From Torpedo marmorata (lineage: Eukaryota): a stretch of DNA of 64,000 bases. The stretch is taken from NCBI GenBank assembly GCA_977017645.1, contig OZ360239.1, positions 33,852,001 to 33,916,000 on the forward strand. Reading direction: 5' to 3'. A model generated the notes under the pieces. That model did not search any database. It was given only the letters and a program-made list of their open reading frames with translations, and was not told where the DNA came from. Shown piece by piece: positions 3,266-63,738 of this stretch. A program made the translations under genes and the position numbers. Numbering within the stretch: position 1 is the stretch's first letter; every line of letters starts with the position of its first letter.

Positions 3266-3396
3266 AGCCCCTTTCACACTGCCAACCCGCTAAATAGGCA
3301 TGTGAATGACCTGTGTTGAAATACCAGGTAGGCCGTTCACACTGGACCAAGAAATCTCGGGTCCGTGCGCCCTTTACCCGCTATCGCGAATCTAAG
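3266..3396. mobile_element. PIF/Harbinger-like terminal fragment between ~70 bp direct repeats
   Basis: gcccctttcacactg and ggccgttcacactg motifs; flanked by near-identical 3196-3265 and 3397-3467. Confidence 0.4.
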
Positions 3397-3938: not shown

Positions 3939-4061
3939 GGTATGGATCCTGCAGATACAACTGTGGGGGACACTCGTCAGATTGTTCCTGTGATTACAAC
4001 TGTGGTTATCATAGAAACTGTTGCACTGACTTCTGTGACTACTGTTTTGATATAAATTACG
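3939..4061 (+). CDS. SMB-like exon 1
   Basis: aacag|GG...TACG|gtaag, 123 nt; YGSCRYNCGGHSSDCSCDYNCGYHRNCCTDFCDYCFDINY. Confidence 0.9.
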
Positions 4062-7000
4062 GTAAGAGAGCATTCAACAAAAAGAAAATTTAAATGTGTA
4101 TTGCAGTTTTCAAAAATAATTTTAAAAAATGGGTGGCACGATTAGCGTAATGCTATTAAAGCGCCAGCGACCCGGGTTAGAATACGGTGCTGTCTGTAAG
4201 GTTATGTGTCTGCATGGGTTTCCTCCGGGTGCTCCAGTTTCCTCCCACCCTTCAAAACATACCTGGGTCATAGGTTAATTAGGGTATTTGGGCAGCACGG
4301 GCTCGTGGGCCAGAAGGCACTGTTACTGTGCAGTATGTATGTCTAAATTAAATTTACCAAAGAAACATCACTGGAGATTTATCCCCATAATATGAATCAG
4401 CATAGTTAGCAACTGTGATAGTCTACTGCAGTGTATGAGATTTTTAAGAAAGATCTGAACTGAGCTCCTTAAAAAGTTAATGATAGAACAATCTGAAGTG
4501 TAGATACTCACCTTAATTCCTGATTTAATTGCTGGACGTTCAGAGAGTAGTGGACCCATGCAATAAACTGCTAATACAGACAATGAAATTTCTATGACTC
4601 TAATATTCCTGCATATGACGAGAAGTTAATTGACAAAAATCAAATAATAAAAAAGCAAACTACTGGAGGAATACAACAGGTGCTTCTTTTGGGGAAAAAT
4701 AAATGTCATAGTTTCAGATTGAGACCTTGTATCAAACCACCAACATCTCTGTTCCCCCACAGATATTGTTCAATTCATTAAGTTCTTCAATGGTTAGATA
4801 TATTTTTTGCATCCAGATTTGAGCAATGCAATCTCTTATTTCTCCAAGCAAATAACTCTGGTCTTTGACTTTATCTATAGAATCCTGTGGTTATGACACA
4901 ACCACAGCAGGTTAGTGATGTTTATGTCAATCTTCTATTAAATCCACTCATAGATTAAATTATTAAAAAACCAATTAATATTCATTAATGTTGTCTACAA
5001 ATATTCAATTAATTTGATAAAAAATTAGAATACAGTATGAGGATTGAACAGGATTAAACAGTTCTAACATTATTACTTTGACAGGCACAACTGAAACAAC
5101 AGAGACAACAGGTAATCAAAATATATTTTGAACATATAGATTCACTTTGACAAGGTTAAACTTTATTATATTAATTTCAAAGTTGTAAGTTGCAAACTAT
5201 TTAATTTTAACCTGATATATACTTCACAACAGGGTACAGTTCCTGCATGTACAATTGTGGTAGATCTTCCTCTGGATGTTCCTGTGATTACAGCTGTCGC
5301 TACTATGGCAACTGCTGTCGTGATTTCTGTGACTACTGTTCCCACATTGATTATGGTAAGGAGCCAGATATAAGGCAAACCAATATTTAAATATCTGTCA
5401 AATTTAAAATATTCACAGCACAAATGGATCTCCAAATTCTGAAGAGAATCTTTTAGAAGATTTTTGCAGAAAATCAATCTAGAGTGCAATGTTTAATATT
5501 CCTTAGGATAAACTTCTCTCCTGCACATTAACACATGTTAACATGGTGTCATTCAAAAATATGGTAACCCTCCAGTTACTGTTCTTAAGGTATATTCTCC
5601 AAAATTTTGATTAAAAACACAAAGAAACGCTGGAGGAACACAGCCGGTCTCGCAGCGTCCTTAGGAGGTAAAGATATATTACTGACGTTTCTGAGTACAG
5701 GCCCGAAATGTCGGTAATATATATTAACCACCGAAAGAAGCTGCAAGACCGGTTGATTTCGTCCAGCATTTTTGTGTGTTTTTACTTCCAAAATGTTGAT
5801 GTTGTTCTCAGCATCATTCTTTTGGACTGTATTCTGATAAGGATGATTCTGCTCAGTTTGGCTTTTGGCTCTAGATTCTAGCCTCTACAGTCTCTTGAGT
5901 TTCCAAGCAATTAACTCATATCTTTGTATTTACAATAGAATACTGTGGCGTTGACACAACAACAGCAGGTCAGCAGTGTTTACAATCAATCTTCTTATCC
6001 TTTGTTGTTTTGTTCATAGGTAGAACTTTTTTCTAAATTAATTATCAAAAACATTTTTGAACACAGTCTGATGATTGAACAGAATAAAACAGTTCTAACA
6101 TTATTACTTCGACAGGCACAACTGAAACAACAGAGAGAACAGGTATCAAAATATATTTTGAACATATAGATTCACTTTGACAAGGTTAAACTTTATTATA
6201 TTAATGTCAAAATTGTAAGTTGCAAACTATTTAATTTTAACCTGATATATACTTCACAACAGGGTACGGTTCCTGCATGTACAATTGTGGTAGATCTTCC
6301 TCTGGATGTTCCTGTGATTACAGCTGTCGTTACTATGGCAACTGCTGTCGTGATTTCTGTGACTACTGTTCCCACATTGATTATGGTAAGGAACCAATAT
6401 AAGGCTATCCAATATTTAAATATCTGTCAAATTTAAAATATTCAGAACACAAATGGATCTCCAAATTCTGAAGAGAATCTTTTAGAAGATTATTGCAGAA
6501 AATCAGTCTAGAGTGCAATGTTTAGTATTCTTTAGGATTAACTTCACTCCTGCACAATAACACATGTTAATATGGTGTCATTCAAAAATATGGTAACTCT
6601 CCAGTTACTGTTCTTAAGGTATATTCTCCAAAATTTTGATTAAAAACACAAAGAAATGCTGGAGGAACTCAGCCGGTCTCGCAGCATCCTTAGGAGGTAA
6701 AGATATATTACCGACGTTTCTGAGCTCAGGCCCGAAACGTCGGTAATATATATTAACCTTAGAAAGAAGCTGCAAGACCGGTTGATTTCGTCCAGCATTT
6801 CTGTTTGTTTTTACTTCCAAAATGTTGATGTTGTTCTCAGTATCATTCTTTTGGACTGTATTCTGATAAGGATGATTCTGCTCAGTTTAACTTTTGGCTC
6901 TAGATTCTAGCCTCTACAGTCTTTTGAGTTTCCAAGCAATTAACTCATGTTTTTGTATTTACAATAGAATACTGTGGCGTTGACACAACAACAGCAGGTC

Positions 7001-10000
7001 AGCAGTGTTTACAATCAATCTTCTTATCCTTTGTTGTTTTGTTCATAGGTAGAATTTTTTTCTAAATTAATTATCAAAAACATTTTTGAACACAGTCTGA
7101 TGATTGAACAGTATAAAACAGTTCTAACATTATTACTTTGACAGGCACAACTGAAACAACAGAGACAACAGGTAATCAAAATATATTTTGAACATATAGA
7201 TTCACTTTGACAAGGTTAAACTTTATTATATTAATGTCAAAATTGTAAGTTGCAAACTATTTAATTTTAACCTGATATATACTTCACAACAGGGTACGGT
7301 TCCTGCATGTACAATTGTGGTAGATCTTCCTCTGGATGTTCCTGTGATTACAGCTGTCGTTACTATGGCAACTGCTGTCGCGATTTCTGTGACTACTGTT
7401 CCCACATTGATTATGGTAAGGAACCAATATAAGGCTATCCAATATTTAAATATCTGTCAAATTTAAAATATTCAGAACACAAATGGATCTCCAAATTCTG
7501 AAGAGAATCTTTTAGAAGATTATTGCAGAAAATCAGTCTAGAGTGCAATGTTTAGTATTCTTTAGGATAAACTTCTCTCCTGCACAATAACGCATGTTAT
7601 TATGGTGTCATTCAAAAATATGGTAACTCTCCAGTTACTGTTCTTAAGGTATATTCTCCAAAATTTTGATTAAAAACACAAAGAAATGCTGGAGGAACTC
7701 AGCCGGTCTCACAGCATCCTTAGGAGGTAAAGATATATTACCGACGTTTCTGAGCTCAGGCCCGAAATGTCGGTAATATATATTAACCTCCGAAAGAAGC
7801 TGCAAGACCGGTTGATTTCGTCCAGCATTTCTGTGTGTTTTTACTTCCAAAATGTTGATGTTGTTCTCAGTATCATTCTTTTGGACTGTATTCTGATAAG
7901 GATGATTCTGCTCAGTTTGGCTTTTGGCTCTAGATTCTAGCCTCTACAGTCTTTTGAGTTTCCAAGCAATTAACTCATGTCTTTGTATTTACAATAGAAT
8001 ACTGTGGCGTTGACACAACAACAGCAGGTCAGCAGTGTTTACAATCAATTTTCTTATCCTTTGTTGTGTTGTTCATAGGTAGAATTTTTTTCTAAATTAA
8101 TTATCAAAAACATTTTTGAACACAGTCTGATGATTGAACAGAATAAAACAGTTCTAACATTATTACTTTGACAGGCACAACTGAAACAACAGAGAGAACA
8201 GGTATCAAAATATCTTTTAGAACATATAGATCCACTTTGACAAGATTAAACTGTATTATATTTATTTCAAAATTGTAAGTTGTTAAGTTTATTTAACTGT
8301 AATTTGATATATACTTGACAACAGGATATGGTTCCTGCATGCAAAATTGTGGTGGATCCTCATCTGGATGTTCCTGTGATTACACCTGTCATTACTATGG
8401 CAACTGCTGCAGTGATTTCTGTGACTACTGTTCCCACATTGATAATGGTGAGGAACCACTTATAAGGCAAACTAATATTTAAATAAATGCTAATAATAAA
8501 ATATATAGAACACAAAGGACCATTTACATCCCAATTATTTGCTTTGTTTTTTCTCAGTAGGATTTTGTGGAAATGACCCTACTGGAGTAGGTTAGTATTG
8601 TTTAAGGTCAATATTTCTCATAAAGTTGTTAATCTGTATTTTGATACATTCTGAATAAGCAGCTTTTCTCTGGGAACTATTTTGTTAATTTGATAAAATA
8701 TTTGAATTCTTTTGTCTAAAGTCTCTACATCTCATATAGAATGAGTGTGTTCTTCTCTGTGCTGATTTATTGCACTTTATTTGAACATCACTGACATGCT
8801 GGTCTGGTTGCTCTGGTTATCGTTATTGTTCATCAGTGATTAGGTGTTACATTAAAAATGTTAAATTTGTTGCTGACTTACAATTCCAATTTGTTCCTTG
8901 CATGAAACATGTATTATTTTAATGCCACTCGAGCGATATGTTTTGCAAGAGAATATTTTTGTGGCCTTCAATACACAAAATATAAAAAAACATTTCAGCA
9001 ACTACACTGGACACAATTTTGTCAAAAGGTTTACTTCCTGAACAAAAATTGGGGATAATGATCGACAACCTCAAGGTGAACACAATGATAATTTCAGATT
9101 TGCTGTATCACGTAGGTATTTGGAGAAACATTAAATTAACTTTTATTGAATTTAGCATGTTTAATCGCATAATGATGCTAACACATTGCGTTAGTTCAAC
9201 TGACCTAAAAATGTTTTGCCGCTGTTTTTCGTTTGTAATCAGCATCTGATGCTCTTGTGTCATTGTCCAACAATAGTCAGCCAGCATTGATTGATTCCAG
9301 TTGCCCTGATACCACTTTTCCATGGTCGCAATGTCCTGGTGAAACTTTTCACCATGTTCGTCATTGACTGCACCAAGACCAGCAGGGAAGAAGTCCAAGT
9401 GCAGATACAGAAAATGACTTTTCAATGACATGTGGCACTTCATGGTTTTGTATGCTTGAAGTAGACTAAAATATGACAGGAAATCACCAAAAATAGGTTA
9501 TATCAAAAAAACGGTACGTGGTAAGTAAATTTTAAGGTGACCACTGGCCCAAAATCCATAAAACATACCCAAAAGTGTTCAGGAAGCAAAATCTTCATTG
9601 TGCAGTTTTATGATTGCTGTGGTCTAGCTTTGATTTTGAAAATATGTAATTGTTCAACTCATTAAACAAGAAAGCTACATCTTTGTGATAACTGAGCTGC
9701 AATGCCATTTTCTAACTTTACATTGAGTTGAATGATTATAAAATGTTCCCTGTAATTAGTAACGATGCAGAGATAACCACCACTGTAGCAGAGCATGTCT
9801 GAGAGTCATAGAGGAATGAAAGAGGAATGTTAAAGGATGTGTGATGCTCACTTTGGACATTTTCACTTCAGTTTCTTTCTTTAATATTTCTTTGAAAGTT
9901 TGAATAATTTTTGATTTAAAAAAAAATAGTTCAACATTTAAAAAATATTTTGTCAGGCACAAGAGCATCAAGAACTTACTGGACAACAGCAAGCTATGGA

Positions 10001-13000
10001 TCTTGCAGACACAACTGTGGTGGATCTTCCTTTGGCTGTTCCTGTGATTATAGCTGTCGTTACTATGGCCGCTGCTGTGCCGATTTTTGTGACTACTGTG
10101 CCTACATGGATAATGGTGAGTGAATATTTATAAAATTACATTTAAATATAAGCTAAAATAATCAGATTATACAAATTGTCAGGACTTCCTTGTTGAAGAT
10201 TATTGTGGTGAAACAATGCCTCTGGATCCTGATAAAAGGAACTTCTCTGCAATGTGCAATGTGATCCATTGGATAGTGGTTATTATTACTTCCAGTGTGA
10301 ACACATTGAGAAATATGATCATTGTCCATTTGTAGTGCTGGTGGCAGTTTCTTCAATATTTTGTGGTTGCTCTAGGCAGGAGCTGGAGTGATATTCTGAA
10401 AGGATCCGAACATAGAATGGGAAGGGATTTGGGAAATTCTTGTTCCTGGGAAGAGCAGACATGTAAGACAAGCTTTTATGTCGGGCAGTGAATAATGATT
10501 TACTCGCTTCCTTCAGACAAAAGCTGAAACTGTTTATGTGTTTGATGGGGATAACCCTGGAAAAAGGATGGTTTTCCAAAAACAGTATTCGGACTATTGC
10601 TGGGCCCTGGACGAGTTTCCACTCGCTGGTTGCATCACTGCCTGGTATGGAGGCGCCAACTCCCAGGGCAAGAGTAAACTCCAGAGGGTTGTTAACTCGG
10701 CCTGTGACATCACATGCACGAAACTTCACTCCATCGAGGACATCTACATGAGGCACTGTCTTAAAAAAGCACCCTCTATCCTCAAAGACCCCCACCACCC
10801 AGGCCATGCCCTCTTCACTCTGCTTCCATCGGGAAAAAGGTACAGGAGCCTAAAGATGAGCACTCAACGGCACAAGGACAGCTTCTTCCCCGCTGCCATC
10901 AGATTCCTGAATAATCAATGAACCAAAGACACTACCTTACTTTTCGTGCACTATTGTTTATAATTTTTTTTAGTAATGTCGTAAGATGGTTAATATGAAT
11001 GTTAATTGCACTATGATGCTGCCGCAAAACACCGAATTTCATGACTTGTTCATGACAATAAATTCTGATTCTGATTCTTTCTTCTTCAAACTTCCCTGAG
11101 ATTATAACTGCCTTATCCAAGAAGTCACTAGGTCTACAGGTGGGGTGGGGAAAGAAGGTTTGTATGTATTATATGTTGCTTATATGTCTGTTCTTAAGGG
11201 CAAAAAGTGATGGACTATAATTGTTGGCTTTGTCAGCAGTGCCCTTACCCAAGAAATAAAATGAATAAATACCTCAATAATATCTGTTCATTACTTTGAA
11301 TCATTGCTGATGTTGATAGTTTCATTTCTATTATATGTCCTATCATTATTTCTATGATTAAGACTGGAAGAAGATTGATCAAATATGCTTTACAATGCAA
11401 ATAAATTGTGTGTATTTGTCTTTAGGATACTGTGGAGGTTACACAACAGGTCAGTAATATTTCCATTCCAACTTTTTAATATGTTTCTCGATTTGTTCAT
11501 TGATGCACTATTTACAAATTCTTATTCTTAGTAGCTGTTTCTAAGGAGTCATTTTGCTGAGCAGGTGATTCTATTGCTGTGTAAAATCTGCATTATTCCT
11601 ATATCAATGTAATGTGTTCTTCATGATGATAACTTTGCAACTCTTTATTGGAGTATTCTATGTTCATATGTGAGAGGTCATGGGACAGACGCAGAGAAAG
11701 AAATTGTGGAAGTTCACTTCAGTTTGTGTTTGTGGCCACTGTCATTTCCGGGGAACTGCAGCAACAACTGCCAAACCACTGCCCCCTTCGCCCAGGGTAT
11801 TTTTGTGAGCTGAGAGAGGAATCCAGTTCTCCCTTGTCCTGCAACCTGTAGGAAACAACATCAGTTCATTGATAATTATGTAATTATCCAGCCACACTCA
11901 GTAGTTTTAGGTAATTATTGCAGAGACAAAATATTCAGCAGTATACATTGGCACTTTTGGGGCAGCAAAAGAATTTCCCTGTCACATGTGACCATCAACT
12001 CACCTTGAATTCATTTTGTTGCCACTTACTTCTGTTGAGGGGACATTTCAGATTCAGGTTTCAGATTTATTGTCAGAGTACATACATGACATCACATACA
12101 ACCCTGAGATTCCTTTTTCCTGTGGGTGCGGCAGAATTACCACTAATTGGTAGTGCAAAAAAATAAACTGTACACAGCGTAAACAAATAAAAGAACTGTA
12201 AACAGATAATGAATGTAAACAAACTGACTGTGCAATACAGAGAGAACAAAAGAAAATCAATAAAGTGCACAAGTAAGAGTCCTTAAATGAGTCTCTGATT
12301 GAGTTTATCGTTGATAGTGGAGGGTAGCAGCTGTTCCTGAACCTGGTGGTGCAAGTCTTGTGGCACCTATACCTCTTTCCTGATGGCAGCAGCGAGAACA
12401 GAGCATGTGCTGGGTGGTGTGGGTCTTTGATGAATTCTGCTGCCCTCCGACGGCAGCGTTCCCTGTAGATGTACTCAACAGTGGGGAGGGTTTTTGCCTG
12501 TGATGTCCTTGGCTATGTCCACTACCTTTTGGAGGGCATTACACTCAGGGGTATTGGTTTTCCCATGCCAGACCGCGATGCAGCTGGTCAGCACACTTTC
12601 CACCACACCTCTGTAGAAATTTTCCAGGGTTTCTGGTGTCATACCAAACCTCCGCAAACTTCTGAGGAAGTAGAGGCGCTGATGTGCTTTCTTCATGATG
12701 CCATTGTTGTGTTGGGTCCAGGAAAGATCCTCCGAGATAGTGACTCTCAAGAACTTAAATTTGCTCACCCTCTCCACCTCTGATCCCCCAATAATCACTG
12801 GATTGTATACCTCTGGCTTTCCTTTCCTGAAGTCAACAATCAGCTCCTTAGTTTTGGTGACATTGAGTGCAAGGTTGTTGTTGGTGCACCATTCAGTCAA
12901 GTTTTCAATCTCCATCCTGTATGCTGGCCAATTAATTTACCAACACATTTTAGGGACTTGGAAGGAAATCAGATCTCCTAGTGCAACCCTATTCTGACCT

Positions 13001-52000: not shown

Positions 52001-55000
52001 AGATTTGAACCCGGGTCACTGGTACTGTAATAGCATTGCACTAACCACAACGCTAATCTTGTTATTTCAGCACTAATGAGTGGCTTACAATGTGGCAAGT
52101 TGGTCTGTCCAGTCACAAGTTTTAATAAAATAATAGTAAATTCCGAGTGTTTCTTCTGTTTTGAATCTGCCCCACTTTGGCACGGCACGGGACGGTGTGT
52201 TAGAATGGGCTGCAGTACCCAGGTTAGAAAGGGAGGTAACATAAAGATTCATTGAGGCCAGAAACTGTCACTGGAAGGGCATGAACATTCATTGTTAAGA
52301 TTTGTCATTTCAAAACGAGGACATATTGATTAACATCTTTAGAATCTTAACGCAATGGAGATTATTTGAATGAACAAGTGTGAAAATAACATATTGATAA
52401 TTAGGAACTGAAACTCATTGCACATTTAAATTCCATTAAAAGGCCTTTTCATAATGAACATCTCGAGGTTTGACAATGATCTTGTGAGAGCAGATTGATC
52501 TTCAGAAAGTTTATGTTTGGTTCACTGGGTAGATGAGGCAGAAACTAGCGGAAAATCCAGGGTCAATTGCAATGATGGTAGTTGAAGTACATCAGGAGGC
52601 AACAATATTTGTGTATTCTTTCACCACTTGTACTTCGCTTACAATGTGATAATTTTGTCCTGCCCTGGCAGTGGTTGAGGTTTAAGGAAAATAGAATTCC
52701 CAGATTTGATTATCTTGTCAATCATTAAACTGCAGCAGGGCAAACGTATGGGTTTTAGAATTGGTCACAGCACCCAGATTAAATACAGAGGTAATTTATA
52801 TTTAATCTGGGCACTGTGACCAATTCTAAAAAGCATTTAGATCAGGAAATGCCATTGGAAGGCCATGTACATTCAATGCAAAGACTCTGTAAGATCAACA
52901 GTTCCATAAGAGAGGGAGGAGAGATAGACTGGCAGCTGTAGAAGTTCATTGCAATGAAGAATTCTGAAATAAGGAAAGCTGGCAACAAATACTGTGAGAG
53001 GGACAAAAAGAAATAGTGTTTCTTTTTCCTTTTATTGTCCCAGCCAGACTTATCAATTTCCTTATTGTTCACAGGTGGATCATGTGGAGGATTCCTTGAT
53101 GGTGCCTCTGGATCTGTCATCAGTCCTGGTTATCCATACACCTATACAAATAATGCAGCCTGCATTTGGTACATCAGAGTGAACAGCAGCAAAATAATAG
53201 ATCTGCGGTTTATTGACCTTGAGTAAGTGAAGATGATTTGACCTTCATTTTATGATACAACTAATCTCAGGGTCGATACCGTTAACTAACAGATTTAATC
53301 GATAATTTCAAATTCATGCAATACATTCAAGGCATTAATTATTTGAAGCTGAATCCGATGTTTGGTCCCTTTCACAAAACTTTGTTGACTGCTTCATTTC
53401 CATTAATCTAAGGACTCTATGAACACATGATTAATAATGTATTTTAGCATTTTCTCATGACAGCTGTTGTGAACCTGCCTGTAATTTTCATTTGTAATTT
53501 CCTACCATCTTGCATTTTTGAATGTGAAAAATAATCCCTGATTATGGCTGCTCCTTGAATGTGAACCTGCTGGATATGAGGACAATCACATTAATTGTTA
53601 TGATGGCATGATAGTCAAGATACTGGACTACTCTGGAGTAATGCGGTGGAGACATATGTTTGAAACGTATGGTGACAGCTGAGAAATTCATAGAATAAAA
53701 TAAATCTGGAATAATGATCATGATAGGTTATAAAGTCTGAACACATAGAGGATGAATTCAGGGACATACATTTAATATGATAAGTAATATTTATCATAAG
53801 TATGTGTGATTAAAGGTTTTTTAAGCAGTGTAGCAGCATGGGATTTCATAAGGGACTGTCCAATATAGAAAAAATTAATATAGGGGGAAAGGGCAGAAGA
53901 GTGGAATCTGCTGACGTGAACCCTACCATCGCAATCGGCCAAACAATTTAATGCTTTGATAGCTGCCGGAACACATAACAAGATGAAATAAATTTCAAGA
54001 GGCATGTTCAGTGTGTAAGGAATTTACTTGATTTGAATTAAGAGCAAAATCTGGAGAAACATTCATGCAAAATTATTATTTATAGGAATAAAGCAGCCAG
54101 TGTTAAATAATGAGAGTTGAAACCAGGTAGATATTTTGGTACAATACACAAAAGTGCTGGAGAAAATCAGCAGGTCACGCAGCATCTATAGGAAGTAAAG
54201 GATAACCAATGTTTCGGGCCTGAGCCCTTTGTCAAGGTATGAGGAAAATACACGCAGCTGCCTGAATAAAAAGGTGAGAGGGTTGGTGGAGAAGAAAGGA
54301 GGGAGGAAGGGGCAGGGGGAGGAGTACAGGTCATAGGTGGATAGAGGTGGGAGGACAGAAGAGAAAAAAAATCTGAGGTGATGGGGGAGGGAGTATCTGT
54401 GAATACAGAGATAAGGAAAGGGGGTGAGGGCTGGAGGAAAGGAGACAGATAGGGAAAGGGAGAGACTCAGGGGAGGGGTTTAACGAAAACTGGAGTTCGA
54501 TGTTAATGCCGTCTGCTTGGAGAGTGCCCAGATGGAATATTAGGTGTTGTTTCTCCAATTTGCGGGTGGCCTTGGTTTGCAAGTTCATGATGCCATGATC
54601 TGCCAACCTGTTGGTATGGGAATGGTGTATGGAATTTAAATGGTTGGCTACTGGGAGGTCCCAATTTTTGCAGTGGACAGAGGGAAGATGCTCAACGAAA
54701 CAGTCTTCCATTCTGCGTCCAGTCTCTCCGATGTAGAGGAGGCCACAACGGGAGCATTGGCCGCAGTAAATGTCGCCTGAAAATTCACAATGGAAATGGT
54801 ACTTCACTTGGAAGGACTGTTTGGGGCCCCGTTTGGTGGTGAGGAAGGAGGTGTGGGCACAGTGTAGCATTTCTTGAGATCACAGGGGTAGGTACCAAGG
54901 GGGGATTAGTGGGAAGGGATGAGTGATTGAGGGAGTCCTTGTGGGAGCGGTCCCTGAAGAAAGCGGAGAAGGGTGGAGATGGGAAGATGTTTCTGATGGT

Positions 55001-58000
55001 GCGATCACATTGTGGATTGCAGAAATTGCAGAGGATAGTATGTTGTGAGGTGAGGACAAGGTGAATCCCGTCCTTTTTGCATCTCGGGGTGGAAGGGTCC
55101 AGGGCAGATTTGAGGGAAATAGAGAAGATTTAGATAACTGCTGAGATGATGGCAGAAATGTGGAAGCCACGATTTTGAAGAAGGAGGACATCTCGGATGT
55201 TCTGAAATGGAAGACATCATCCTGGGAGCAGTCATGACGGAGACAGAGGAATTTAGATAAAGGAATAAGATGCTTATCGGGGACAGTGGGTGAAGAGGTT
55301 GAGTTAAGGTAACTGTAGGAATTGGTATGTTTTATAGGTGTATGTGAGTTTAGCGTGTTGTATTATGTGTGAAGGAAAATGTTGTTATGCATGTCTTGGA
55401 AGGTCTGATTATAAAAGTGTGGCACAATGTTTCTTTTGTTCTTTGAATTGCTCAAATGATTTCCACATAGTTTCATCATTGTGTTATTTTTATAAATGTT
55501 AATTAATAAATAAATACAATTAATTGATTTTCAAAATGTGATCATTCTATTAACAGCCTGGAAGTGTCATCGAGTTGCTCCTATGATTCCGTTGCAATAT
55601 ATGATGGACCTTCAACAAATTCCGCTTTGCTGGCAAAACTCTGCCAAGATTCAAATGAAACTTTTACATCATCATCCAACAGCATGACTATTTATTTTCG
55701 ATCAGATGCCAGTGTAACCAGGCGTGGTTTTGTAGCAAACTATCGCTCTCTATATGACAACAATGGTGAGCTTTGTTAAAATACTTGTTGAAGGAAGTGG
55801 AACAAGTTAAAAAATGAAATTACCTACAAAACACTTCATCACAATAAAAGTGAAAAAGTAAAAAAAATATGATAACTGTGTAGAAATTCTAATTGCAATT
55901 GAGAATCTTTGTGAATGCATGTGACACTACAATGTTTTAGTTTGTTTCCCTGTGTATGTGAGGCAGAAATAATTGAAGTACACAGGAACATTTAGAGTAA
56001 TGTCTATGATCGTACAATAAAGGGCCAACATTTAATTTAAAAAAATAATTGAGAGATACAACAGAGTAACATGCCCTTCTGGCTCACGTGCCCATGCCAC
56101 CCAATTATATCCATGTTATCTGACCAACCCCGTACGTCTTTGAGTACCCGGAGGAAACCCACAAGGAGACGTACAAACTCCTCACAGACAGCATCAGATT
56201 TGAACCCGGGTCGCTGGTACTGTAATAGCGGTGCACTAACCACTACGCTAATCATGTTATTTCAGCACTAATGAGTGGCTTATAATGTGGCATGTTGGTC
56301 TGTGCAGTCACAAGGTTTAATAAAATAATAGTAAATTCCGAGTGTTTCTTCTGTTTTGAATCTGCCCCACTTTGGCACGGCACAGGACGGGGTGTTAGAA
56401 TGAGCTGCAGTACCCAGGTTAGAAAGGGAGCTAACATAAAGATTCATTGAGGCCAGAAACTGTCACTGGAAGGGCATGAACATTCATTGTTAAGATTTGT
56501 CATTTCAAAAGTAGGACATATTGATTAACATCTTTAGAATCTTAACGCAATGGAGATTATTTGAATGAGCAAGTGTGAAAATAACATATTGATAATTAGG
56601 AACTGAAACACATTGCACATTTAAATTGCATTAAAAAGCCTTTTCATAATGAACATCTCGAGGTTTGACAATGATCTTGTGAGAGCAGATTGATCTTCAG
56701 AAAATTTTTGTTTGGTTCACTGGGTAGATGAGGCAGAAACTATCAGAAAATCCAGGGTCAATTGCAATGATGGTAGTTGAAGTACATCAGGAGGCACCAA
56801 TATTTGTGTATTCTTTCACCACTTGTACTTCGCTTACAATGTGATAATTTTGTCTTGCCCTGGCAGTGGTTGAGGTTTAAAGAAAATAGAATTCCCAGAT
56901 TTGATTATCTTGTCAATCATTAAACTGCAGCAGGGCAAACGTATGGGTCTTAGAATTGGTCACAGCGCCCAGATTAAATACAGAGGTAATTTATATTTAA
57001 TCTGGGCACTGTGACCAATTCTAAAAAGCATTTAGATCAGGAAATGCCATTGGAAGGTCATGTACATTCAATGCAAAGACTCTGTAAGATCAACAGTTCC
57101 ATAAGAGAGGGAGGAGAGATAGTCTGGCAGATGTAAAAGCTCATTGCAATGAAGAATTCTGAAATAAGGAAAGCTGGCAACAAATACTGTGAGAGGGACA
57201 AAAAGAAATAGTGTTTCTTTTTCCTTTTATTGTCCCAGCCAGACTTATCAATTTCCTTATTGTTCACAGGTGGATCATGTGGAGGATTCCTTGATGGTGC
57301 CTCTGGGTCTGTCATCAGTCCTGGTTATCCAAACACCTATACAAATAATGCAGCCTGCATTTGGTACATCAGAGTGAACAGCAGCAAAATAATAGATCTG
57401 CGGTTTATTGACCTTGAGTAAGTGAAGATGATTTGACCTTCATTTTATGATACAACTAATCTCAGGGTCGATACCGTTAACTAACAGATTTAATCGATAA
57501 TTTCAAATTCATGCAATACATTCAAGGCATTAATTATTTGAAGCTGAATCCGATGTTTGGTCCCTTTCACAAAACTTTGTTGACTGCTTCATTTCCATTA
57601 ATCTAAGGACTCTATGAACACATGATTAATAATGTATTTTAGCATTTTCTCATGACAGCTGTTGTGAACCTGCCTGTAATTTTCATTTGTAATTTCCTAC
57701 CATCTAACATTTTTGAATGTGAAAAATAATCCCTGATTATGGCTGCTCCTTGAATGTGAACCTGCTGGATATGAGGACAATCACATTAATTGTTATGATG
57801 GCATGATAGTCAAGATACTGGACTACTCTGGAGTAATGTGGTGGAGACATATGTTTGAAACGTATGGTGACAGCTGAGAAATTCATAGAATAAAATAAAT
57901 CTGGAATAATGATCATGATAGGTTATAAAGTCTGATCACATAGAGGATGAATTCAGGGACAAACATTTAATATGATAAGTAATATTTATCATAAGTATGT

Positions 58001-61000
58001 GTGATTAAAGGTTTTTTAAGCAGTGTAGCAGCATGGGATTTCATAAGGGACTGTCCAATATAGAAAAAATTAATATAGGGGGAAAGGGCAGAAGAGTGGA
58101 ATCTGCTGACGTGAACCCTACCATCGCAATCGGCCAAACAATTTAATGCTTTGATAGCTGCCGGAACACATAACAAGATGAAATAAATTTCAAGAGGCAT
58201 GTTCAGTGTGTAAGGAATTTACTTGATTTGAATTAAGAGCAAAATCTGGAGAAACATTCATGCAAAATTATTATTTATAGGAATAAAGCAGCCAGTGTTA
58301 AATAATGAGAGTTGAAACCAGGTAGATATTTTGGTACAATACACAAAAGTGCTGGAGAAAATCAGCAGGTCACGCAGCATCTATAGGAAGTAAAGGATAA
58401 CCAATGTTTCGGGCCTGAGCCCTTTGTCAAGGTATGAGGAAAATACACGCAGCTGCCTGAATAAAAAGGTGAGAGGGTTGGTGGAGAAGAAAGGAGGGAG
58501 GAAGGGGCAGGGGGAGGAGTACAGGTCATAGGTGGATAGAGGTGGGAGGACAGAAGAGAAAAAAAATCTGAGGTGATTGGGAAGGGAGTATCTGTGAATA
58601 CAGAGATAAGGAAAGGGGGTGAGGGCTGGAGGAAAGGAGACAGATAGGGAAAGGGAGAGACTCAGGGGAGGGGTTTAACGAAAACTGGAGGTCGATGTTA
58701 ATGCCGTCTGCTTGGAGAGTGCCCAGATGGAATATTAGGTGTTGTTCCTCCAATTTGCGGGTGGCCTTGGTTTGCAAGTTCATGATGCCATGATCTGCCA
58801 ACCTGTTGGTATGGGAATGGTGTGTGGAATTTAAATGGTTGGCTACTGGGAGGTCCCAATTTTTGCAGTGGACAGAGGGAAGATGCTCAACGAAACAGTC
58901 TTCCATTCTGCGTCCAGTCTCTCCGATGTAGAGGAGGCCACAACGGGAGCATTGGCCGCAGTAAATGTCGCCTGAAAATTCACAATGGAAATGGTACTTC
59001 ACTTGGAAGGACTGTTTGGGGCCCCGTTTGGTGGTGAGGAAGGAGGTGTGGGCACAGTGTAGCATTTCTTGAGATCACAGGGGTAGGTACCAAGGGGGGA
59101 TTAGTGGGAAGGGATGAGTTATTGAGGGAGTCCTTGTGGGAGTGGTCCCTGAAGAAAGCGGAGAAGGGTGGAGATGGGAAGATGTTTCTGATGGTGCGAT
59201 CGCATTGTGGATTGCAGAAATTGCAGAGGATAGTATGTTGTGAGGTGAGGACAAGGTGAATCCCGTCCTTTTTGCATCTCGGGGTGGAAGGGTCCAGGGC
59301 AGATTTGAGAGAAATAGAGAAGATTTAGATAACTGCTGAGATGATGGCAGAAATGTGGAAGCCACGATTTTGAAGAAGGAGGACATCTCGGATGTTCTGA
59401 AATGGAAGACATCATCCTGGGAGCAGTCATGACGGAGACAGAGGAATTTAGATAAAGGAATAAGATGCTTACCGGGGACAGTGGGTGAAGAGGTTGAGTT
59501 AAGGTAACTGTAGGAATTGGTATGTTTTATAGGTGTATGTGAGTTTAGCGTTTTGTATTATGTGTGAAGGAAAATGTTGTTATGCATGTCTTGGAAGGTC
59601 TGATAATAAAATTGTGGCACAATGTTTCTTTTGTTCTTTGAATTGCTCAAATAATTTCCACATAGTTTCATCATTGTGTTATTTTTATAAATGTTAATTA
59701 ATAAATAAATACAATTAATTGATTTTCAAAATGTGATCATTCTATTAACAGCCTGGAAGTGTCATCGAGTTGCTCCTATGATTCCGTTGCAATATATGAT
59801 GGACCTTCAACAAATTCTGCTTTGCTGGCAAAACTCTGCCAAGATTCAAATGAAACTTTTACATCATCATCCAACAGCATGACTATTTATTTTCGATCAG
59901 ATGCCAGTGTAACCAGGCGTGGTTTTGTAGCAAACTATCGCTCTCTATATGGTGAGCTTTGTTAAAATACTTGTTGAAGGAAGTGGAGCAAGTTAAAAAA
60001 TGAAATTACCTACAAAACACTTCATCACAATAAAAGTGAAAAAGTAAAAAAAATATGATAACTGTGTAGAAATTCTAATTGCAATTGAGAATCTTTGTGA
60101 ATGCATGTGACACTACAATGTTTTAGTTTGTTTCCCTGTGTATGTGAGGCAGAAATAATTGAAGTACACAGGAACATTTAGAGTAATGTCTATGATCGTA
60201 CAATAAAGGGCCAACATTTAATTTAAAAAAATAATTGAGAGATACAACAGAGTAACATGCCCTTCTGGCTCACGTACCCATGCCACCCAATTATATCCAT
60301 GTTATCTGACTAACCCCGTACGTCTTTGAGTACGCGGAGGAAACCCACATGAAGACGTACAAACTCCTCACAGACAGTATCAGATTTGAACCCGTGTCGC
60401 TGGTACTGTAATAGCGGTGCACTAACCACTACGCTAATCATGTTATTTCAGCACTAATGAGTGGCTTACAATGTGGCAAGTTGGTCTGTCCAGTCACACG
60501 GTTTAATAAAATAATAGTAAATTCCGAGTGTTTCTTCTGTTTTGAATCTGCCCCACTTTTGCACGGCACAGGACGGGGTGTTAGAATGAGCTGCAGTACC
60601 CAGGTTAGAAAGGGAGCTAACATAAAGATTCATTGAGGCCAGAAACTGTCACTGGAAGGGCATGAACATTCATTGTTAAGATTTGTCATTTCAAAAGTAG
60701 GACATATTAATTAACATCTTTAGAATCTTAACGCAATGGAGATTATTGGAATGAAAAAGTGTGAAAGTAACATATTGATTATTAGGAACTGAAACACATT
60801 GCACATTTAAATTGCATTAAAAGGCCTTTTCATAATGAACATCTCGAGGTTTGACAATGATCTTGTGAGAGCAGATTGATCTTCAGAAAGTTTTTGTTTG
60901 GTTCACTGGGTAGATGAGGCAGAAACTATCAGAAAATCCAGGGTCAATTGCAATGATGGTAGTTGAAGTACATCAGGAGGCAACAATATTTGTGTATTCT

Positions 61001-61604
61001 TTCACCACTTGTACTTCGCTTACAATGTGATAATTTTGTCCTGCCCTGGCAGTGGTTGAGGTTTAAAGAAAATAGAATTCACAGATTTGATTATCTTGTC
61101 AATCAATTAAACTGCAGCAGTGAAAACATTTGGGTTTTAGAACTGGTCACAGCACCCAGATTAAATACAGAGGTAATTTATATTTAATCTGGGCACTGTG
61201 ACCAATTCTAAAAAGCATTTAGATCAGGAAATGCCATTGGAAGGTCATGTACATTCAATGCAAAGACTCTGTAAGATCAACAGTTCCATAAGAGAGGGAG
61301 GAGAGATAGACTGGCAGCTGTAGAAGCTCATTGCAATGAAGAATTCTGAAATAAGGAAAGCTGGCAACAAATACTGTGAGAGGGACAAAAAGAAATAGTG
61401 TCTATTTTTCCTTTTATTGTCCCAGCCAGACTTATCAATTTCCTTATTGTTCACAGGTGGATCATGTGGAGGATTCCTTGATGGTGCCTCTGGATCTGTC
61501 ATCAGTCCTGGTTATCCATACACCTATACAAATAATGCAGCCTGCATTTGGTACATCAGAGTGAACAGCAGCAAAATAATAGATCTGCGGTTTATTGACC
61601 TTGA
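3939..61604 (+). CDS. Partial multi-exon gene: SMB-like x7 + Thr-rich linkers + CUB x>=11 extracellular protein (DMBT1/CUZD1/uromodulin-like); 5' and 3' ends not resolved
   Basis: 41 exons with canonical AG/GT ends and compatible phases (modules are phase 1-1; CUB halves join in phase 2). They splice into one open frame of ~4906 nt. Confidence 0.85.
4130..4355 (+). mobile_element. tRNA-derived V-SINE
   Basis: ggtggcacg..ttagcgtaatgctatt head, core gggtttcctccgggtgctccagtttcctcccac, (aaatt)n tail. Confidence 0.75.
4881..4910 (+). CDS. Micro-exon A1 (Cys + Thr linker)
   Basis: tatag|AA...GCAG|gttagt, 30 nt; (E)SCGYDTTTA. Confidence 0.8.
5085..5111 (+). CDS. Micro-exon B1 (Thr-rich)
   Basis: gacag|GC...ACAG|gtaat, 27 nt; (G)TTETTETT. 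Confidence 0.8.
5233..5355 (+). CDS. SMB-like exon 2
   Basis: aacag|GG...TATG|gtaag, 123 nt; YSSCMYNCGRSSSGCSCDYSCRYYGNCCRDFCDYCSHIDY. Confidence 0.9.
5614..5785. repeat. Fold-back element made of two inverted Penelope-type termini (copies at 6643-6815 and 7672-7845)
   Basis: aaaacacaaag..gctggaggaa..cagccggtctcgcagc ... gctgcaagaccggttga..tccagc..tgtgttttt; the right arm matches the 19.2 kb Penelope tail. Confidence 0.7.
5939..5968 (+). CDS. Micro-exon A2
   Basis: aatag|...|gtcag, 30 nt; (E)YCGVDTTTA. Confidence 0.8.
6116..6142 (+). CDS. Micro-exon B2
   Basis: gacag|...|gtatc, 27 nt; (G)TTETTERT. Confidence 0.75.
6263..6385 (+). CDS. SMB-like exon 3
   Basis: 123 nt, near-identical to exon 2, AG/GT intact. 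Confidence 0.9.
6968..6997 (+). CDS. Micro-exon A3
   Basis: 30 nt; (E)YCGVDTTTA. Confidence 0.8.
7145..7171 (+). CDS. Micro-exon B3
   Basis: 27 nt; (G)TTETTETT. Confidence 0.8.
7293..7415 (+). CDS. SMB-like exon 4
   Basis: 123 nt, near-identical to exon 3, AG/GT intact. Confidence 0.9.
7998..8027 (+). CDS. Micro-exon A4
   Basis: 30 nt; (E)YCGVDTTTA. Confidence 0.8.
8175..8201 (+). CDS. Micro-exon B4
   Basis: 27 nt; (G)TTETTERT. Confidence 0.75.
8325..8447 (+). CDS. SMB-like exon 5
   Basis: aacag|GA...AATG|gtgag, 123 nt; YGSCMQNCGGSSSGCSCDYTCHYYGNCCSDFCDYCSHIDN. Confidence 0.9.
8561..8590 (+). CDS. Micro-exon A5
   Basis: Pyrimidine tract, then cagtag|GA...GTAG|gttagt, 30 nt; (G)FCGNDPTGV. 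Confidence 0.75.
   Translation, partial: DFVEMTLLE
9005..9607 (-). mobile_element. Internally deleted Chapaev3-like DNA transposon
   Basis: cactggacac... terminus; minus ORF SLKSHFLYLHLDFFPAGLGAVNDEHGEKFHQDIATMEKWYQG (transposase C-terminal region); cta/tta flanks. Confidence 0.75.
9957..10115 (+). CDS. SMB-like exon 6 with fused linker (alternative in-frame acceptor at 9990)
   Basis: tgtcag|GC...AATG|gtgag, 159 nt; TRASRTYWTTASYGSCRHNCGGSSFGCSCDYSCRYYGRCCADFCDYCAYMDN. Confidence 0.85.
10622..11078 (+). mobile_element. 5'-truncated Rex1/Babar-type LINE
   Basis: ORF end ITAWYG...LQRVVNSA...ILKDPHHPGHALFTLLPSGKRYRSL; aataaa followed by (ttctga)n tail. Confidence 0.85.
11426..11449 (+). CDS. 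Micro-exon A6
   Basis: ctttag|GA...ACAG|gtcagt, 24 nt; (G)YCGGYTT. Confidence 0.75.
12047..12925 (-). mobile_element. 5'-truncated Rex1/Babar-type LINE
   Basis: Minus ORF WCTNNNLALNVTKTKELIVDFRK...KAHQRLYFLRSLRRFGM; tail ttcagattcagg..tttattg. Confidence 0.85.
13471..13494 (+). CDS. Linker micro-exon
   Basis: tttcttag|AA...ACAG|gtatgg, 24 nt; (E)GPTFLPT, 134 nt upstream of SMB exon 7. Confidence 0.7.
13629..13751 (+). CDS. SMB-like exon 7
   Basis: aacag|AA...AATG|gtaag, 123 nt; NNSCRYRCGGNSSSCSCDHDCYYHGNCCFDFCNHCAYINN. Confidence 0.9.
13985..14808 (+). mobile_element. GC/CpG-rich non-autonomous retroelement with (cttgaat)n tail
   Basis: Abrupt GC island ending aataaattgaatcttgaatcttgaatcttgaatc; a related 3' end occurs antisense at 22788-22915. 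Confidence 0.6.
15104..16048 (-). mobile_element. 5'-truncated L1/Tx1-type LINE with TSD
   Basis: Minus ORFs ...KWESDL...QYNFVHQLYLTP and ...IPLEKITYNLR...KMWSPY (ORF2 C-terminus); poly-T; 13 bp TSD tattattgtttct at 15091-15103 and 16049-16061. Confidence 0.85.
16133..16159 (+). CDS. Micro-exon A7
   Basis: ctatag|GA...TCAG|gtcagt, 27 nt; (G)YCGSYDTS. Confidence 0.75.
16290..17010 (+). mobile_element. Old degenerate L2/Deu-type LINE or SINE remnants
   Basis: 3' end resembles the ...tttagggatgagcaataa...ggccttgc tail; heavily decayed, boundaries approximate. Confidence 0.35.
17050..17296 (+). mobile_element. tRNA-derived V-SINE
   Basis: B-box-like gggttcgaatccc, V-core gggttttccccaggtgctccagtttcctccc, aaatttaaattt tail. 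Confidence 0.75.
17565..17800. repeat. Fold-back Penelope-terminus-derived element
   Basis: gcagcatccatggagagaaatgatcag ... ctgaccatttctctccatggatgctgc inverted arms; related elements at 584-720, 4650-4850 and 22625-22790. Confidence 0.65.
18092..18103 (+). CDS. Candidate 12-nt micro-exon
   Basis: Long pyrimidine tract ctctttttccttcttttcag|CACCAATATCAG|gtaacc; (A)PIS, phase 1-1. Confidence 0.55.
18220..19290 (+). mobile_element. Penelope-like element remnant (GIY-YIG end plus terminal repeat)
   Basis: SFFxxxGFP...DRIPLVLTYHPT- and LPVATHFNS...EEKHLVFCLGTL-type frames; tail ttgaggaagggctcaggcccaaaatgtc. Confidence 0.8.
19397..19544 (+). CDS. CUB1 N-half exon (diverged unit 0)
   Basis: cacag|GT...GA|gtaagt, 148 nt; GSCGGYLDGAYGSVISPGYPYNYPNNAACIWYIRVNSNQTINLQFTEM. 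Confidence 0.9.
19758..20365 (-). mobile_element. Internally deleted Chapaev3-like DNA transposon
   Basis: cactggacaacaa ... ttgttgtccaatg TIRs, tta/ata flanks; same deletion structure as 9005-9607. Confidence 0.75.
20636..21060 (-). mobile_element. Degenerate CR1-like LINE 3' fragment
   Basis: atcatagagtcgtgcagcacagg tail, then ...tccatcacctcttctggcag... typical of antisense CR1 3' ends; decayed. Confidence 0.45.
21295..21390 (+). mobile_element. 3' fragment of the same V-SINE
   Basis: taggtcaattgggtgtaattgggcagcacgggctcgtgggccga... matches 4270-4345. Confidence 0.6.
22183..22391 (+). CDS. CUB1 C-half exon
   Basis: gacag|C...GATG|gtaag, 209 nt; LEVSSSCSFDYVAVYNGPS...FRSDSSVTRRGFTANYRTLPIND. 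Confidence 0.9.
23098..23176. repeat. ~79 bp near-perfect inverted repeat, one per CUB unit, ending ~243 nt upstream of each N-half exon
   Basis: ttttagaattggtcacagcgcccagatta / taatctgggcactgtgaccaattctaaaa: 29 bp arms with 1 mismatch. Confidence 0.9.
23419..23566 (+). CDS. CUB2 N-half exon (unit 1)
   Basis: 148 nt; GSCGGFLDGASGSVISPGYPYTYTNNAACIWYIRVNSSKIIDLRFIDL. Confidence 0.9.
24494..25698 (-). mobile_element. Penelope-like remnant in unit 1
   Basis: Minus frames ...EDCFVEHL...KLEEQHLIFHLGTLQADGINI; homologous to 18220-19290. Confidence 0.85.
25905..26113 (+). CDS. CUB2 C-half exon (unit 1)
   Basis: aacag|C...AATG|gtgag, 209 nt; ends RSLYDNN. Confidence 0.9.
26380..26707 (+). mobile_element. 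Short 5'-truncated L1/Tx1 insertion private to unit 1
   Basis: Starts tggagcccatatatgaga (WSPYMR, compare 15368 ORF end), ends aataaa...poly-A; TSD aaagggccaaca at 26368-26379 and 26708-26719; units 2-9 show the empty site. Confidence 0.88.
26720..26944 (-). mobile_element. V-SINE, antisense, co-amplified in CUB units 1-9
   Basis: Reverse complement of head and core (cccggaggaaaccca; gaacccgggtcgctgg; tacgctaa). Other copies near 30.9, 35.1, 39.3, 43.5, 47.65, 51.85, 56.05 and 60.2 kb. Confidence 0.75.
27959..28106 (+). CDS. CUB3 N-half exon (unit 2)
   Basis: 148 nt, AG/GT intact, PGYPNTY variant. Confidence 0.9.
29023..30233 (-). mobile_element. Penelope-like remnant in unit 2
   Basis: Same insertion, co-amplified. 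Confidence 0.85.
30440..30639 (+). CDS. CUB3 C-half exon (unit 2)
   Basis: 200 nt; ends RSLN. Confidence 0.9.
32145..32292 (+). CDS. CUB4 N-half exon (unit 3)
   Basis: 148 nt, PGYPNTY variant. Confidence 0.9.
33211..34421 (-). mobile_element. Penelope-like remnant in unit 3
   Basis: GIY-YIG-type IYCGRCSRCGLLYIGETGRR in ORF 33402-33941. Confidence 0.85.
34628..34836 (+). CDS. CUB4 C-half exon (unit 3)
   Basis: 209 nt; ends RSLYDNN. Confidence 0.9.
36341..36488 (+). CDS. CUB5 N-half exon (unit 4)
   Basis: 148 nt, PGYPNTY variant. Confidence 0.9.
37405..38614 (-). mobile_element. Penelope-like remnant in unit 4
   Basis: GIY-YIG-type motif in ORF 37596-38162. Confidence 0.85.
38819..39018 (+). 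CDS. CUB5 C-half exon (unit 4)
   Basis: 200 nt; ends RSLY. Confidence 0.9.
40521..40668 (+). CDS. CUB6 N-half exon (unit 5)
   Basis: 148 nt, PGYPYTY variant. Confidence 0.9.
41585..42795 (-). mobile_element. Penelope-like remnant in unit 5
   Basis: GIY-YIG-type motif in ORF 41776-42315. Confidence 0.85.
43002..43201 (+). CDS. CUB6 C-half exon (unit 5)
   Basis: 200 nt; ends RSLY. Confidence 0.9.
44706..44853 (+). CDS. CUB7 N-half exon (unit 6)
   Basis: 148 nt, PGYPYTY variant. Confidence 0.9.
45771..46981 (-). mobile_element. Penelope-like remnant in unit 6
   Basis: GIY-YIG-type motif in ORF 45962-46501. Confidence 0.85.
47188..47387 (+). CDS. CUB7 C-half exon (unit 6)
   Basis: 200 nt; ends RSLY. 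Confidence 0.9.
48892..49039 (+). CDS. CUB8 N-half exon (unit 7)
   Basis: 148 nt; private A>D change (NNADCIW). Confidence 0.9.
49956..51165 (-). mobile_element. Penelope-like remnant in unit 7
   Basis: GIY-YIG-type motif in ORF 50147-50713. Confidence 0.85.
51372..51571 (+). CDS. CUB8 C-half exon (unit 7)
   Basis: 200 nt; ends RSLY. Confidence 0.9.
53075..53222 (+). CDS. CUB9 N-half exon (unit 8)
   Basis: 148 nt, PGYPYTY variant. Confidence 0.9.
54140..55350 (-). mobile_element. Penelope-like remnant in unit 8
   Basis: GIY-YIG-type motif in ORF 54331-54870. Confidence 0.85.
55557..55765 (+). CDS. CUB9 C-half exon (unit 8)
   Basis: 209 nt; ends RSLYDNN. Confidence 0.9.
57270..57417 (+). 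CDS. CUB10 N-half exon (unit 9)
   Basis: 148 nt, PGYPNTY variant. Confidence 0.9.
58335..59545 (-). mobile_element. Penelope-like remnant in unit 9
   Basis: GIY-YIG-type motif in ORF 58526-59065. Confidence 0.85.
59752..59951 (+). CDS. CUB10 C-half exon (unit 9)
   Basis: 200 nt; ends RSLY. Confidence 0.9.
61457..61604 (+). CDS. CUB11 N-half exon (unit 10); C-half not in window
   Basis: 148 nt, AG/GT intact. Confidence 0.88.
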
Positions 61605-63722: not shown

Positions 63723-63738
63723 ATTTTTTTGTATTATG

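Follow-up and report, generated by a model that had tools for sequence, protein, structure and literature searches.

The 64,000-nt stretch of DNA analysed here (the window) is AT-rich and of vertebrate-type composition. It appears to hold the central part of one gene which, judged by sequence, very probably falls within the SMB-CUB-ZP branch that fishes have of the DMBT1/CUZD1 family. As the original prediction had proposed, 41 exons on the forward strand (3939–61604), each with an AG acceptor and a GT donor, join in frame into 1635 codons with no stop (Table 1). The spliced model consists of seven SMB modules, then ten complete CUBs plus half of an eleventh, namely its first exon. The seven SMB-linker units predicted at the outset were thus all found, while the predicted eleven CUBs became ten and that first exon. 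All SMB and linker exons are phase 1-1, and each CUB is encoded by two exons of phases 1-2 and 2-1 (148 nt, followed by 200 or 209 nt). Because these phases are compatible, adding or losing a whole unit leaves the reading frame intact.

Table 1 Exons, tandem arrays and other features mapped in the window.
Feature	Position	Strand	Remarks
SMB1 exon	3939..4061	+	123 nt, 9 Cys, phase 1-1; has the model's weakest acceptor
Micro-exon A1, linker	4881..4910	+	holds the module's 10th Cys
Micro-exon B1, linker	5085..5111	+	Thr-rich
SMB2 exon	5233..5355	+	Pfam
Micro-exon A2	5939..5968	+	10th Cys
Micro-exon B2	6116..6142	+	exon model
SMB3 exon	6263..6385	+	Pfam
Micro-exon A3	6968..6997	+	10th Cys
Micro-exon B3	7145..7171	+	exon model
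SMB4 exon	7293..7415	+	Pfam
Micro-exon A4	7998..8027	+	10th Cys
Micro-exon B4	8175..8201	+	exon model
SMB5 exon	8325..8447	+	Pfam; partner of Narcine SMB1
Micro-exon A5	8561..8590	+	30 nt, 10th Cys; kept in Narcine
SMB6 exon	9957..10115	+	159 nt, linker built in; Pfam; partner of Narcine SMB2
Micro-exon A6	11426..11449	+	10th Cys
Micro-exon B6	13471..13494	+	kept in Narcine
SMB7 exon	13629..13751	+	Pfam; partner of Narcine SMB3
Micro-exon A7	16133..16159	+	10th Cys
Micro-exon B7	18092..18103	+	12 nt; bridges SMB block to CUB block; kept in Narcine
CUB1 exon a	19397..19544	+	divergent, non-amplified type
CUB1 exon b	22183..22391	+	exon model, Pfam
CUB2 exon a	23419..23566	+	exon model, Pfam
CUB2 exon b	25905..26113	+	209 nt; Pfam
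CUB3 exon a	27959..28106	+	exon model
CUB3 exon b	30440..30639	+	200 nt
CUB4 exon a	32145..32292	+	exon model
CUB4 exon b	34628..34836	+	209 nt
CUB5 exon a	36341..36488	+	exon model
CUB5 exon b	38819..39018	+	200 nt
CUB6 exon a	40521..40668	+	exon model
CUB6 exon b	43002..43201	+	200 nt
CUB7 exon a	44706..44853	+	exon model
CUB7 exon b	47188..47387	+	200 nt
CUB8 exon a	48892..49039	+	exon model
CUB8 exon b	51372..51571	+	200 nt
CUB9 exon a	53075..53222	+	exon model
CUB9 exon b	55557..55765	+	209 nt
CUB10 exon a	57270..57417	+	exon model
CUB10 exon b	59752..59951	+	200 nt
CUB11 exon a	61457..61604	+	partner exon absent from window
SMB tandem array	4805..8516	+	~1030-bp exon-intron unit: SMB exon and two micro-exons
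CUB tandem array	22950..63747	+	~4186-bp exon-intron unit
LINE-like insertion	26380..26705	-	CUB unit 2 only; 12-bp target-site duplication
Array-unrelated sequence	63748..64000	.	cuts unit 11 ~190 bp ahead of expected CUB11b

Domain searches agreed with this model. Pfam recognised PF01033 in all seven SMB exons (E 8.7e-6 to 1.1e-3, 5/7 above the gathering score) and PF00431 in all four CUB exons submitted out of 21 (E 1e-13 to 4.7e-9). A scan of the six frames of the window (1582 stop-free segments of at least 25 residues, compared with HMMs built from the retrieved proteins) returned seven SMB and 21 CUB segments at E<1e-3, and no ZP or SRCR match. The claim that SRCR and EGF exons are missing held at the level of these searches, which for SRCR was the HMM scan and for EGF a regular expression only, with no pattern found in the window. 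A splice scan of symmetric phase-1 exons of up to 400 nt (positions 1–27900 and beyond 61600) gave no candidate protease exon, and Rfam had no match in the window.

The search for a signal-peptide exon within positions 1–3938 yielded only chance matches to the N-termini of relatives, and the second exon of CUB11 is absent; the model therefore reaches neither end of the gene. The window ends within the intron of CUB11, whose second exon would be expected to start at about 63939. Beyond 63747 unit 11 no longer matches the other units: its divergence from their consensus rises from 0.8% to 7.9% towards its 3′ end, and it breaks at 63748. The sequence from 63748 to 64000, which opens with TG and contains a GA repeat, is possibly a mobile-element insertion, perhaps an LTR. 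By analogy with its relatives, the gene is predicted to encode a signal peptide upstream of the window and, beyond its end, a terminal CUB, a ZP domain and a furin-type site. Upstream of SMB1 there is also a candidate 18-nt micro-exon (144–161, forward strand, symmetric phase 1, fair splice scores), which could be a further linker exon; it had no match among the N-termini of relatives. A 17-bp tandem repeat of 3.3 copies (3860–3916) adjoins the weak SMB1 acceptor on its upstream side.

In each SMB module nine Cys are encoded by the SMB exon and a tenth by the next micro-exon, giving ten per module in 7/7. An eight-Cys core aligns with the SMB domains of SUSD2, ENDOU, ENPP and vitronectin, and two extra Cys lie beyond this core in all seven modules. 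Every complete chondrichthyan or sturgeon module that was matched has both extra Cys, as do three of five gar modules; the first alone occurs in Polypterus (2/2) and in three truncated shark models, and neither is present in the 36 matched teleost modules. This co-occurrence suggests that the two residues form a fifth disulphide. An AlphaFold prediction from a 13-row alignment led by a 128-residue shark relative (P0009) had a mean pLDDT of 44.7, too low to bear on this bond. The vitronectin residues Asp22 and Tyr28 are kept in 7/7 and 5/7 modules, respectively, in an alignment to vitronectin that is weak (E 0.53). In vitronectin, according to one account, the SMB pocket containing these residues buries an Arg of uPAR or PAI-1 (PMC8417595); in the window modules they may instead be structural. 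The RGD that follows the SMB domain in vitronectin-type proteins occurs nowhere in the spliced model, and the SMB linkers are Thr-rich. When the SMB block is spliced (exons from 5233 to 8590), its +1 frame stays open for about 250 codons and encodes a Thr/Val-rich repeat; the N-terminal SMB exons of a Heterodontus model (P0002) appear to have been translated in such a frame, probably a misannotation.

The best match of the second CUB2 exon to a solved structure was cubilin (3kq4, E 1.3e-23). Aligned to CUB2 of PCPE-1, the second CUB exons match the positions of Glu183, Tyr190, Asp191 and Asp233. These Ca2+-site motifs are kept in all ten complete CUBs; in CUB1, Phe takes the place of Tyr190. 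The Tyr-Glu-Asp-Asp signature of Ca2+-binding CUBs (cbCUB) is thus found in the window, with motif counts of 11, 10, 10 and 10; we took its Tyr to be that of a YPxxY motif. In PCPE-1 CUB2, Glu183 and Asp233 are described as coordinating Ca2+ and forming the salt bridge with a ligand Lys, with Tyr190 stabilising the site (PMC6372009). The amplified CUB copies differ at few residues only, carry about two N-glycan sequons each and are joined by very short links.

Self-comparison of the window resolved two tandem arrays, with units of ~1.03 kb (SMB) and ~4.19 kb (CUB), which bears out the proposal of two separate exon-intron amplifications. SMB units measure 1030–1032 bp, and in units 2–4 exons differ by 1–2% and introns by 3–5%. 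CUB units measure 4180–4196 bp, except unit 2, which an insertion has lengthened to 4540 bp. Any two of the nine full CUB units differ by 0.9–3.9%; they are near-identical, as had been described, and show a mosaic of variants with the edge units most divergent. Singletons number 72 in unit 2 and 54 in unit 3, compared with 3–21 in the other units, and 2354 of 5995 pairs of informative sites fail the four-gamete test. Taken together, the private variants, the edge singletons, the four-gamete failures and the unit-2 insertion fit unequal exchange and not copying during assembly; with all units distinct, we rejected an assembly collapse or duplication. Unequal crossing-over between phase-compatible exon-intron units would alter the repeat number, as in human DMBT1.

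Exons of the CUB array are more conserved than its introns. The p-distance is 0.72% in exons versus 2.42% in introns (3.4-fold lower in exons), and segregating ungapped columns number 8/348 in exons versus 307/3820 in introns (p=1.8e-5). All 19 gap blocks in introns are non-triplet; the sole exon gap is 9 nt. In the scored codons we counted four replacement changes where 21.8 would be expected at intron density (p=4e-6), and three silent changes where 6.7 would be expected; a fifth replacement change lies at the end of the second CUB3 exon, outside the scored codons. Between replacement (4/271) and silent (3/83) changes there is no significant difference (Fisher p=0.36), and as no more than 1.6 exon frameshifts would be expected, finding none says little (P=0.2). 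For these two reasons exon-biased gene conversion may account for part of the exon conservation.

To find relatives, we searched with a profile of six SMB exons of the window, which retrieved 22 proteins from sharks, rays and teleosts, named DMBT1-like or CUZD1; 15 of them have precomputed SMB, CUB and ZP Pfam domains. From a second search, with the CUB-ZP end of a Narcine protein as query, the best 120 of 175 matches were taken. The relatives compared here are the resulting 138 retrieved proteins, isoforms included, of up to 2000 residues. Among them at least 32 combine SMB, CUB and ZP, all of them fish by source name (sharks, rays, sturgeon, gar and teleosts have annotated models of this kind), and runs of at least four consecutive CUBs occur in eight or more; the majority of the SMB-CUB-ZP relatives carry one or two CUBs. 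The second CUB2 exon had 19 matches, 17 of them vertebrate (DMBT1-like, CUZD1, hypothetical or uncharacterised) and two invertebrate. These matches and the SMB-CUB-ZP relatives support the kinship with DMBT1 and CUZD1 that had been suggested.

Among the matches listed, only one joins an SMB block to a run of at least four CUBs: a Narcine bancroftii protein of 1036 residues annotated as 'SRCR domain-containing protein DMBT1-like' (P0004), with three SMBs, five CUBs and a ZP domain. From SMB5 into CUB1, linkers included, 141 of 171 aligned residues are identical (82%), and the alignment spans micro-exons A5, A6, B6, A7 and the 12-nt B7. SMB5, SMB6 and SMB7 pair one-to-one with Narcine SMB1, SMB2 and SMB3 (support 96/81, 99/93 and 100/99). 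The second CUB2 exon is 90% identical to Narcine and 78–79% to Mobula and P0001, which makes an electric ray related to Narcine the probable source of the DNA, and the window CUBs group with batoid members in a CUB tree. The colinearity with P0004 lends support to the micro-exons and to the junction of the SMB and CUB blocks, although P0004 too is a gene model, and it upholds the view of one modular gene; with the junction kept in Narcine, we rejected a division into two genes. By these comparisons the gene would count as orthologous to P0004, an uncharacterised model that has SRCR in its name but no SRCR domain. P0004 differs from the window in having fewer SMBs (its N-terminus is apparently incomplete), five annotated CUBs, no divergent CUB ahead of the amplified ones, and a ZP domain.

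We placed the relatives using a tree of their ZP domains, built by a quick method from 35 hand-picked rows. In it the seven chondrichthyan rows cluster together (SH-aLRT 100), next to the clades of tetrapod CUZD1 and DMBT1 but nested inside neither. The simplest reading of these sequences is that the chondrichthyan genes are a pro-orthologue of both DMBT1 and CUZD1. All six relatives checked have an R-x-[KR]-R site after ZP, and a hydrophobic tail resembling a membrane anchor was seen in three of six inspected; the Narcine and Mobula models stop right after the ZP domain without such a tail. Sharks also have multi-CUB paralogues without ZP (six, four and three CUBs). The ZP branch of P0004 is 0.53 long, compared with 0.01–0.12 for the other chondrichthyan end branches, hinting that the gene may evolve faster in electric rays. 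One whale-shark model (P0032) carries a fused fragment of BTBD16, a gene that in human lies near HTRA1-DMBT1. In marsupials HTRA1, DMBT1 and CUZD1 are described as adjoining (10.1101/2025.03.27.645633), and the fusion is a hint only that the locus is that of DMBT1-CUZD1. Models P0017–P0019 of Heptranchias perlo have SRCR directly before an SMB of the window type, which suggests that some sharks combine the two domains in a single gene; because of these models, SRCR exons upstream of the window are possible.

The original prediction had regarded the architecture as lineage-specific and unrecognised, and the comparison did not support this. SMB, CUB and ZP are annotated together across fishes, Narcine has the three-SMB, five-CUB form and a basking shark (Cetorhinus maximus, P0023) has a separate array of nine CUBs before ZP. 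The architecture is already in the databases, and high copy number alone is unusual; compared with its annotated relatives, the window gene appears to differ by copy number only. No retrieved protein has seven SMBs and eleven CUBs, and we found no experimental study of such an orthologue. Likewise, searches of the open-access literature returned no paper describing the fish SMB-CUB-ZP architecture or an elasmobranch member, and brought up no transcript, expression, ligand or protein data on this gene or on a chondrichthyan relative.

The trees also bear on the history of the arrays. CUB2–10 of the window and CUB1–4 of Narcine form one clade in two trees (100/98 and 98/93), within which they split by species as sister groups (96/83 and 92/95). 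The amplified CUB type is therefore older than the split between the two, and was homogenised or re-expanded in each. The Cetorhinus array, which is likewise long and near-identical (CUB2–8, 97.5–100%) and sits beside a ZP domain of the same chondrichthyan clade as Narcine, groups apart from these CUBs; it is a separate amplification, ends in a hydrophobic tail and has no SMB in the annotated isoform. An AU test rejected one shared origin for the arrays of the electric rays and the basking shark (p=0.0003), with a grouping picked after the earlier trees had been seen. The tree behind it excluded five of the window CUBs, four identical copies from Cetorhinus, the CUB of Channa, CUB1 of Huso and any CUB piece shorter than 96 residues. 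Near-identical CUB arrays thus appear to have arisen at least twice, in the electric-ray lineage and in the basking shark, and look homogenised within each. CUB expansion recurs in Narcine, Cetorhinus and some frogs. SMB arrays expand separately in P0001, Heterodontus and Scyliorhinus, in a rough tree of 40 columns.

Several known proteins resemble the window gene in part. The fish SMB-CUB-ZP proteins (teleost, gar and sturgeon cuzd1 or 'DMBT1-like', and P0001, P0002 and P0003) share tandem SMBs on Ser/Thr-rich linkers followed by CUB, and P0001 has an amplified SMB array too, with up to 12 in a row, nine of them identical. They differ in usually having one CUB before ZP, or CUBs among the SMBs, and teleost SMBs have eight Cys rather than ten. 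Mammalian DMBT1 (SALSA/gp340) also repeats a binding module on Ser/Thr-rich spacers, through intragenic tandem units that change in copy number, and its CUB-ZP end is matched in the relatives of the window gene. There, however, it is the SRCR that is repeated, with two CUBs, whereas the window amplifies SMB and CUB and no SRCR was found; the tandem SRCRs that define DMBT1 proper as a group B SRCR protein are therefore lacking from the window. Tetrapod CUZD1 shares the SRCR-free CUB-ZP architecture and a ZP domain related to that of the relatives, but has two CUBs, no SMB and no tandem array, compared with seven SMBs and more than ten CUBs here. Cubilin, too, has a long run of CUBs (27), but these are diverged, come with an EGF block and lack SMB and ZP, whereas the window CUBs are closest to DMBT1-like proteins. 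We rejected a cubilin fragment, given no EGF pattern and CUBs of another type.

What might such a protein do? By analogy with these systems, we lean, with modest confidence, towards a secreted, ZP-polymerised, Ca2+-dependent multivalent binder at epithelia, and the secreted multivalent binder first proposed is supported as the best guess. The protein would be secreted at an epithelial surface, cleaved after its ZP domain and polymerised through ZP, with no membrane anchor, as in Narcine and Mobula. The polymer would carry long arms of weak binding sites. Each CUB Ca2+ site would grip a ligand Lys, as in solved CUBs, and each SMB pocket (Asp22, with Tyr28 in five of seven) would grip an Arg, as in vitronectin; the SMBs would stand where DMBT1 has its SRCRs. 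Such arms could capture by avidity repetitive targets presenting Lys or Arg, whether microbial surface proteins or host mucus proteins. Multipoint low-affinity contacts and avidity are described for arrays of Ca2+-binding CUBs (PMC10850435). For DMBT1, one report suggests ZP-driven oligomerisation (PMC3100851), another gives ~20–45% fewer bacteria bound with 8 than with 13 SRCRs (PMC5435793), and a third describes SRCR copy number as variable and repeat number as fast-mutating (PMC4851238).

Reports on teleost cuzd1 expression are sparse and mixed. They include induction in non-differentiated gill cells of smolting salmon (PMC8129531), an expression report from zebrafish gut mutants (PMC8959185) and, from cod larvae, a microbe-linked induction of a cuzd1-like gene, which may however encode another ZP protein (PMC5938384). 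The salmon report would also suit a role like that of CUZD1, as a protein of zymogen granules or of the apical membrane in pancreas, gut or gill, acting in secretory sorting or epithelial differentiation. CUZD1 is described as expressed in pancreatic acinar cells (10.1101/2025.03.27.645633), the ZP tree places the chondrichthyan clade no closer to DMBT1 than to CUZD1, and half of the six relatives inspected have the anchor-like tail. However, the two ray models end at ZP without that tail, the tetrapod CUZD1 rows retrieved have just two CUBs before ZP, and repeat turnover of this kind is presented as typical of DMBT1 (PMC4851238); we regard this role as doubtful.

The CUB array might also serve mainly as a glycosylated spacer rod that lifts the SMB tips off the ZP filament, so that a change in repeat number would alter length and not binding. 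Copies that are near-identical rather than diversified, sequons on each CUB and very short links would all fit a rod. Conservation of the ligand-gripping residues in 10/10 complete CUBs speaks for binding instead, although the Ca2+ could be structural, and we consider a mainly spacing role unlikely. It is more improbable still that unequal crossing-over enlarged the array as a mere neutral side effect, with one or two CUBs sufficient for function and copy number left to drift. Most SMB-CUB-ZP relatives do have one to two CUBs, in-phase units expand with the frame intact, and the replacement/silent ratio by itself is not significant; against this, exon changes are depleted relative to introns and expansion recurs in Narcine, Cetorhinus and some frogs, though both observations are compatible with drift in copy number. 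Although the window lacks a start, a signal peptide and a stop, unit 11 is cut at 63748 and sharks have CUB-only paralogues, an assembly artefact, a pseudogene or two adjoining genes (one SMB-only, one CUB-only) is very improbable, given nine full units that each carry private variants, one private insertion with a target-site duplication, the stop-free codons and the junction colinear with Narcine.

Returning to the multivalent binder, a broader proposal can be put forward tentatively: the elasmobranch CUB beside ZP may have been amplified repeatedly and independently, under selection for avidity, into homogenised arrays of variable copy number, and a ten-Cys SMB whose tenth Cys has its own micro-exon may replace SRCR as the mucosal capture module in a fish pro-orthologue of DMBT1 and CUZD1. 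The window has the highest combined SMB and CUB count among the retrieved proteins (up to 2000 residues), and if selection for avidity is the right reading it would be the largest such case among them. It would also offer a natural test of domain swapping (SRCR versus SMB versus CUB) on one ZP scaffold. As the gene shows, three different modules can be amplified on the DMBT1/CUZD1 scaffold through phase-compatible exon-intron units: SRCR in tetrapods, SMB in fishes, and CUB in electric rays, the basking shark and some frogs. The window gives a clear view of this mechanism, within what is a modest question in fish mucosal biology and not a new kind of protein. Database names can mislead here, since relatives called 'SRCR-domain-containing DMBT1-like' lack SRCR and one model apparently has its SMB exons in the wrong frame.

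The introns contain several repeats. Pfam searches of seven reading frames from them gave nothing but weak or LINE-associated matches. Fragments of LINE-type reading frames lie at 10499–10918 (+) and 12478–12900 (-); the latter matches ALKBH8_N (PF09004), a domain associated with LINEs. A LINE-like 3′ fragment with a weak zf-RVT match lies at 15104–16030 (-), and the insertion in CUB unit 2 is a short related copy. A ~1-kb repeat at 18230–19277 (+) recurs, inverted, in intron 1 of every amplified CUB unit (for example 24509–25538); the lone copy upstream shares 68–70% identity with those in the array. The translation of this repeat resembles a Penelope-like/GIY-YIG element, a resemblance with no counterpart among the Pfam matches. 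Finally, a ~600-bp repeat is present in three same-strand copies that are 79–90% identical (775–1597, 9000–9618 and 19752–20365), all within or just upstream of the gene, and is either a dispersed element or a relic of an older local duplication.
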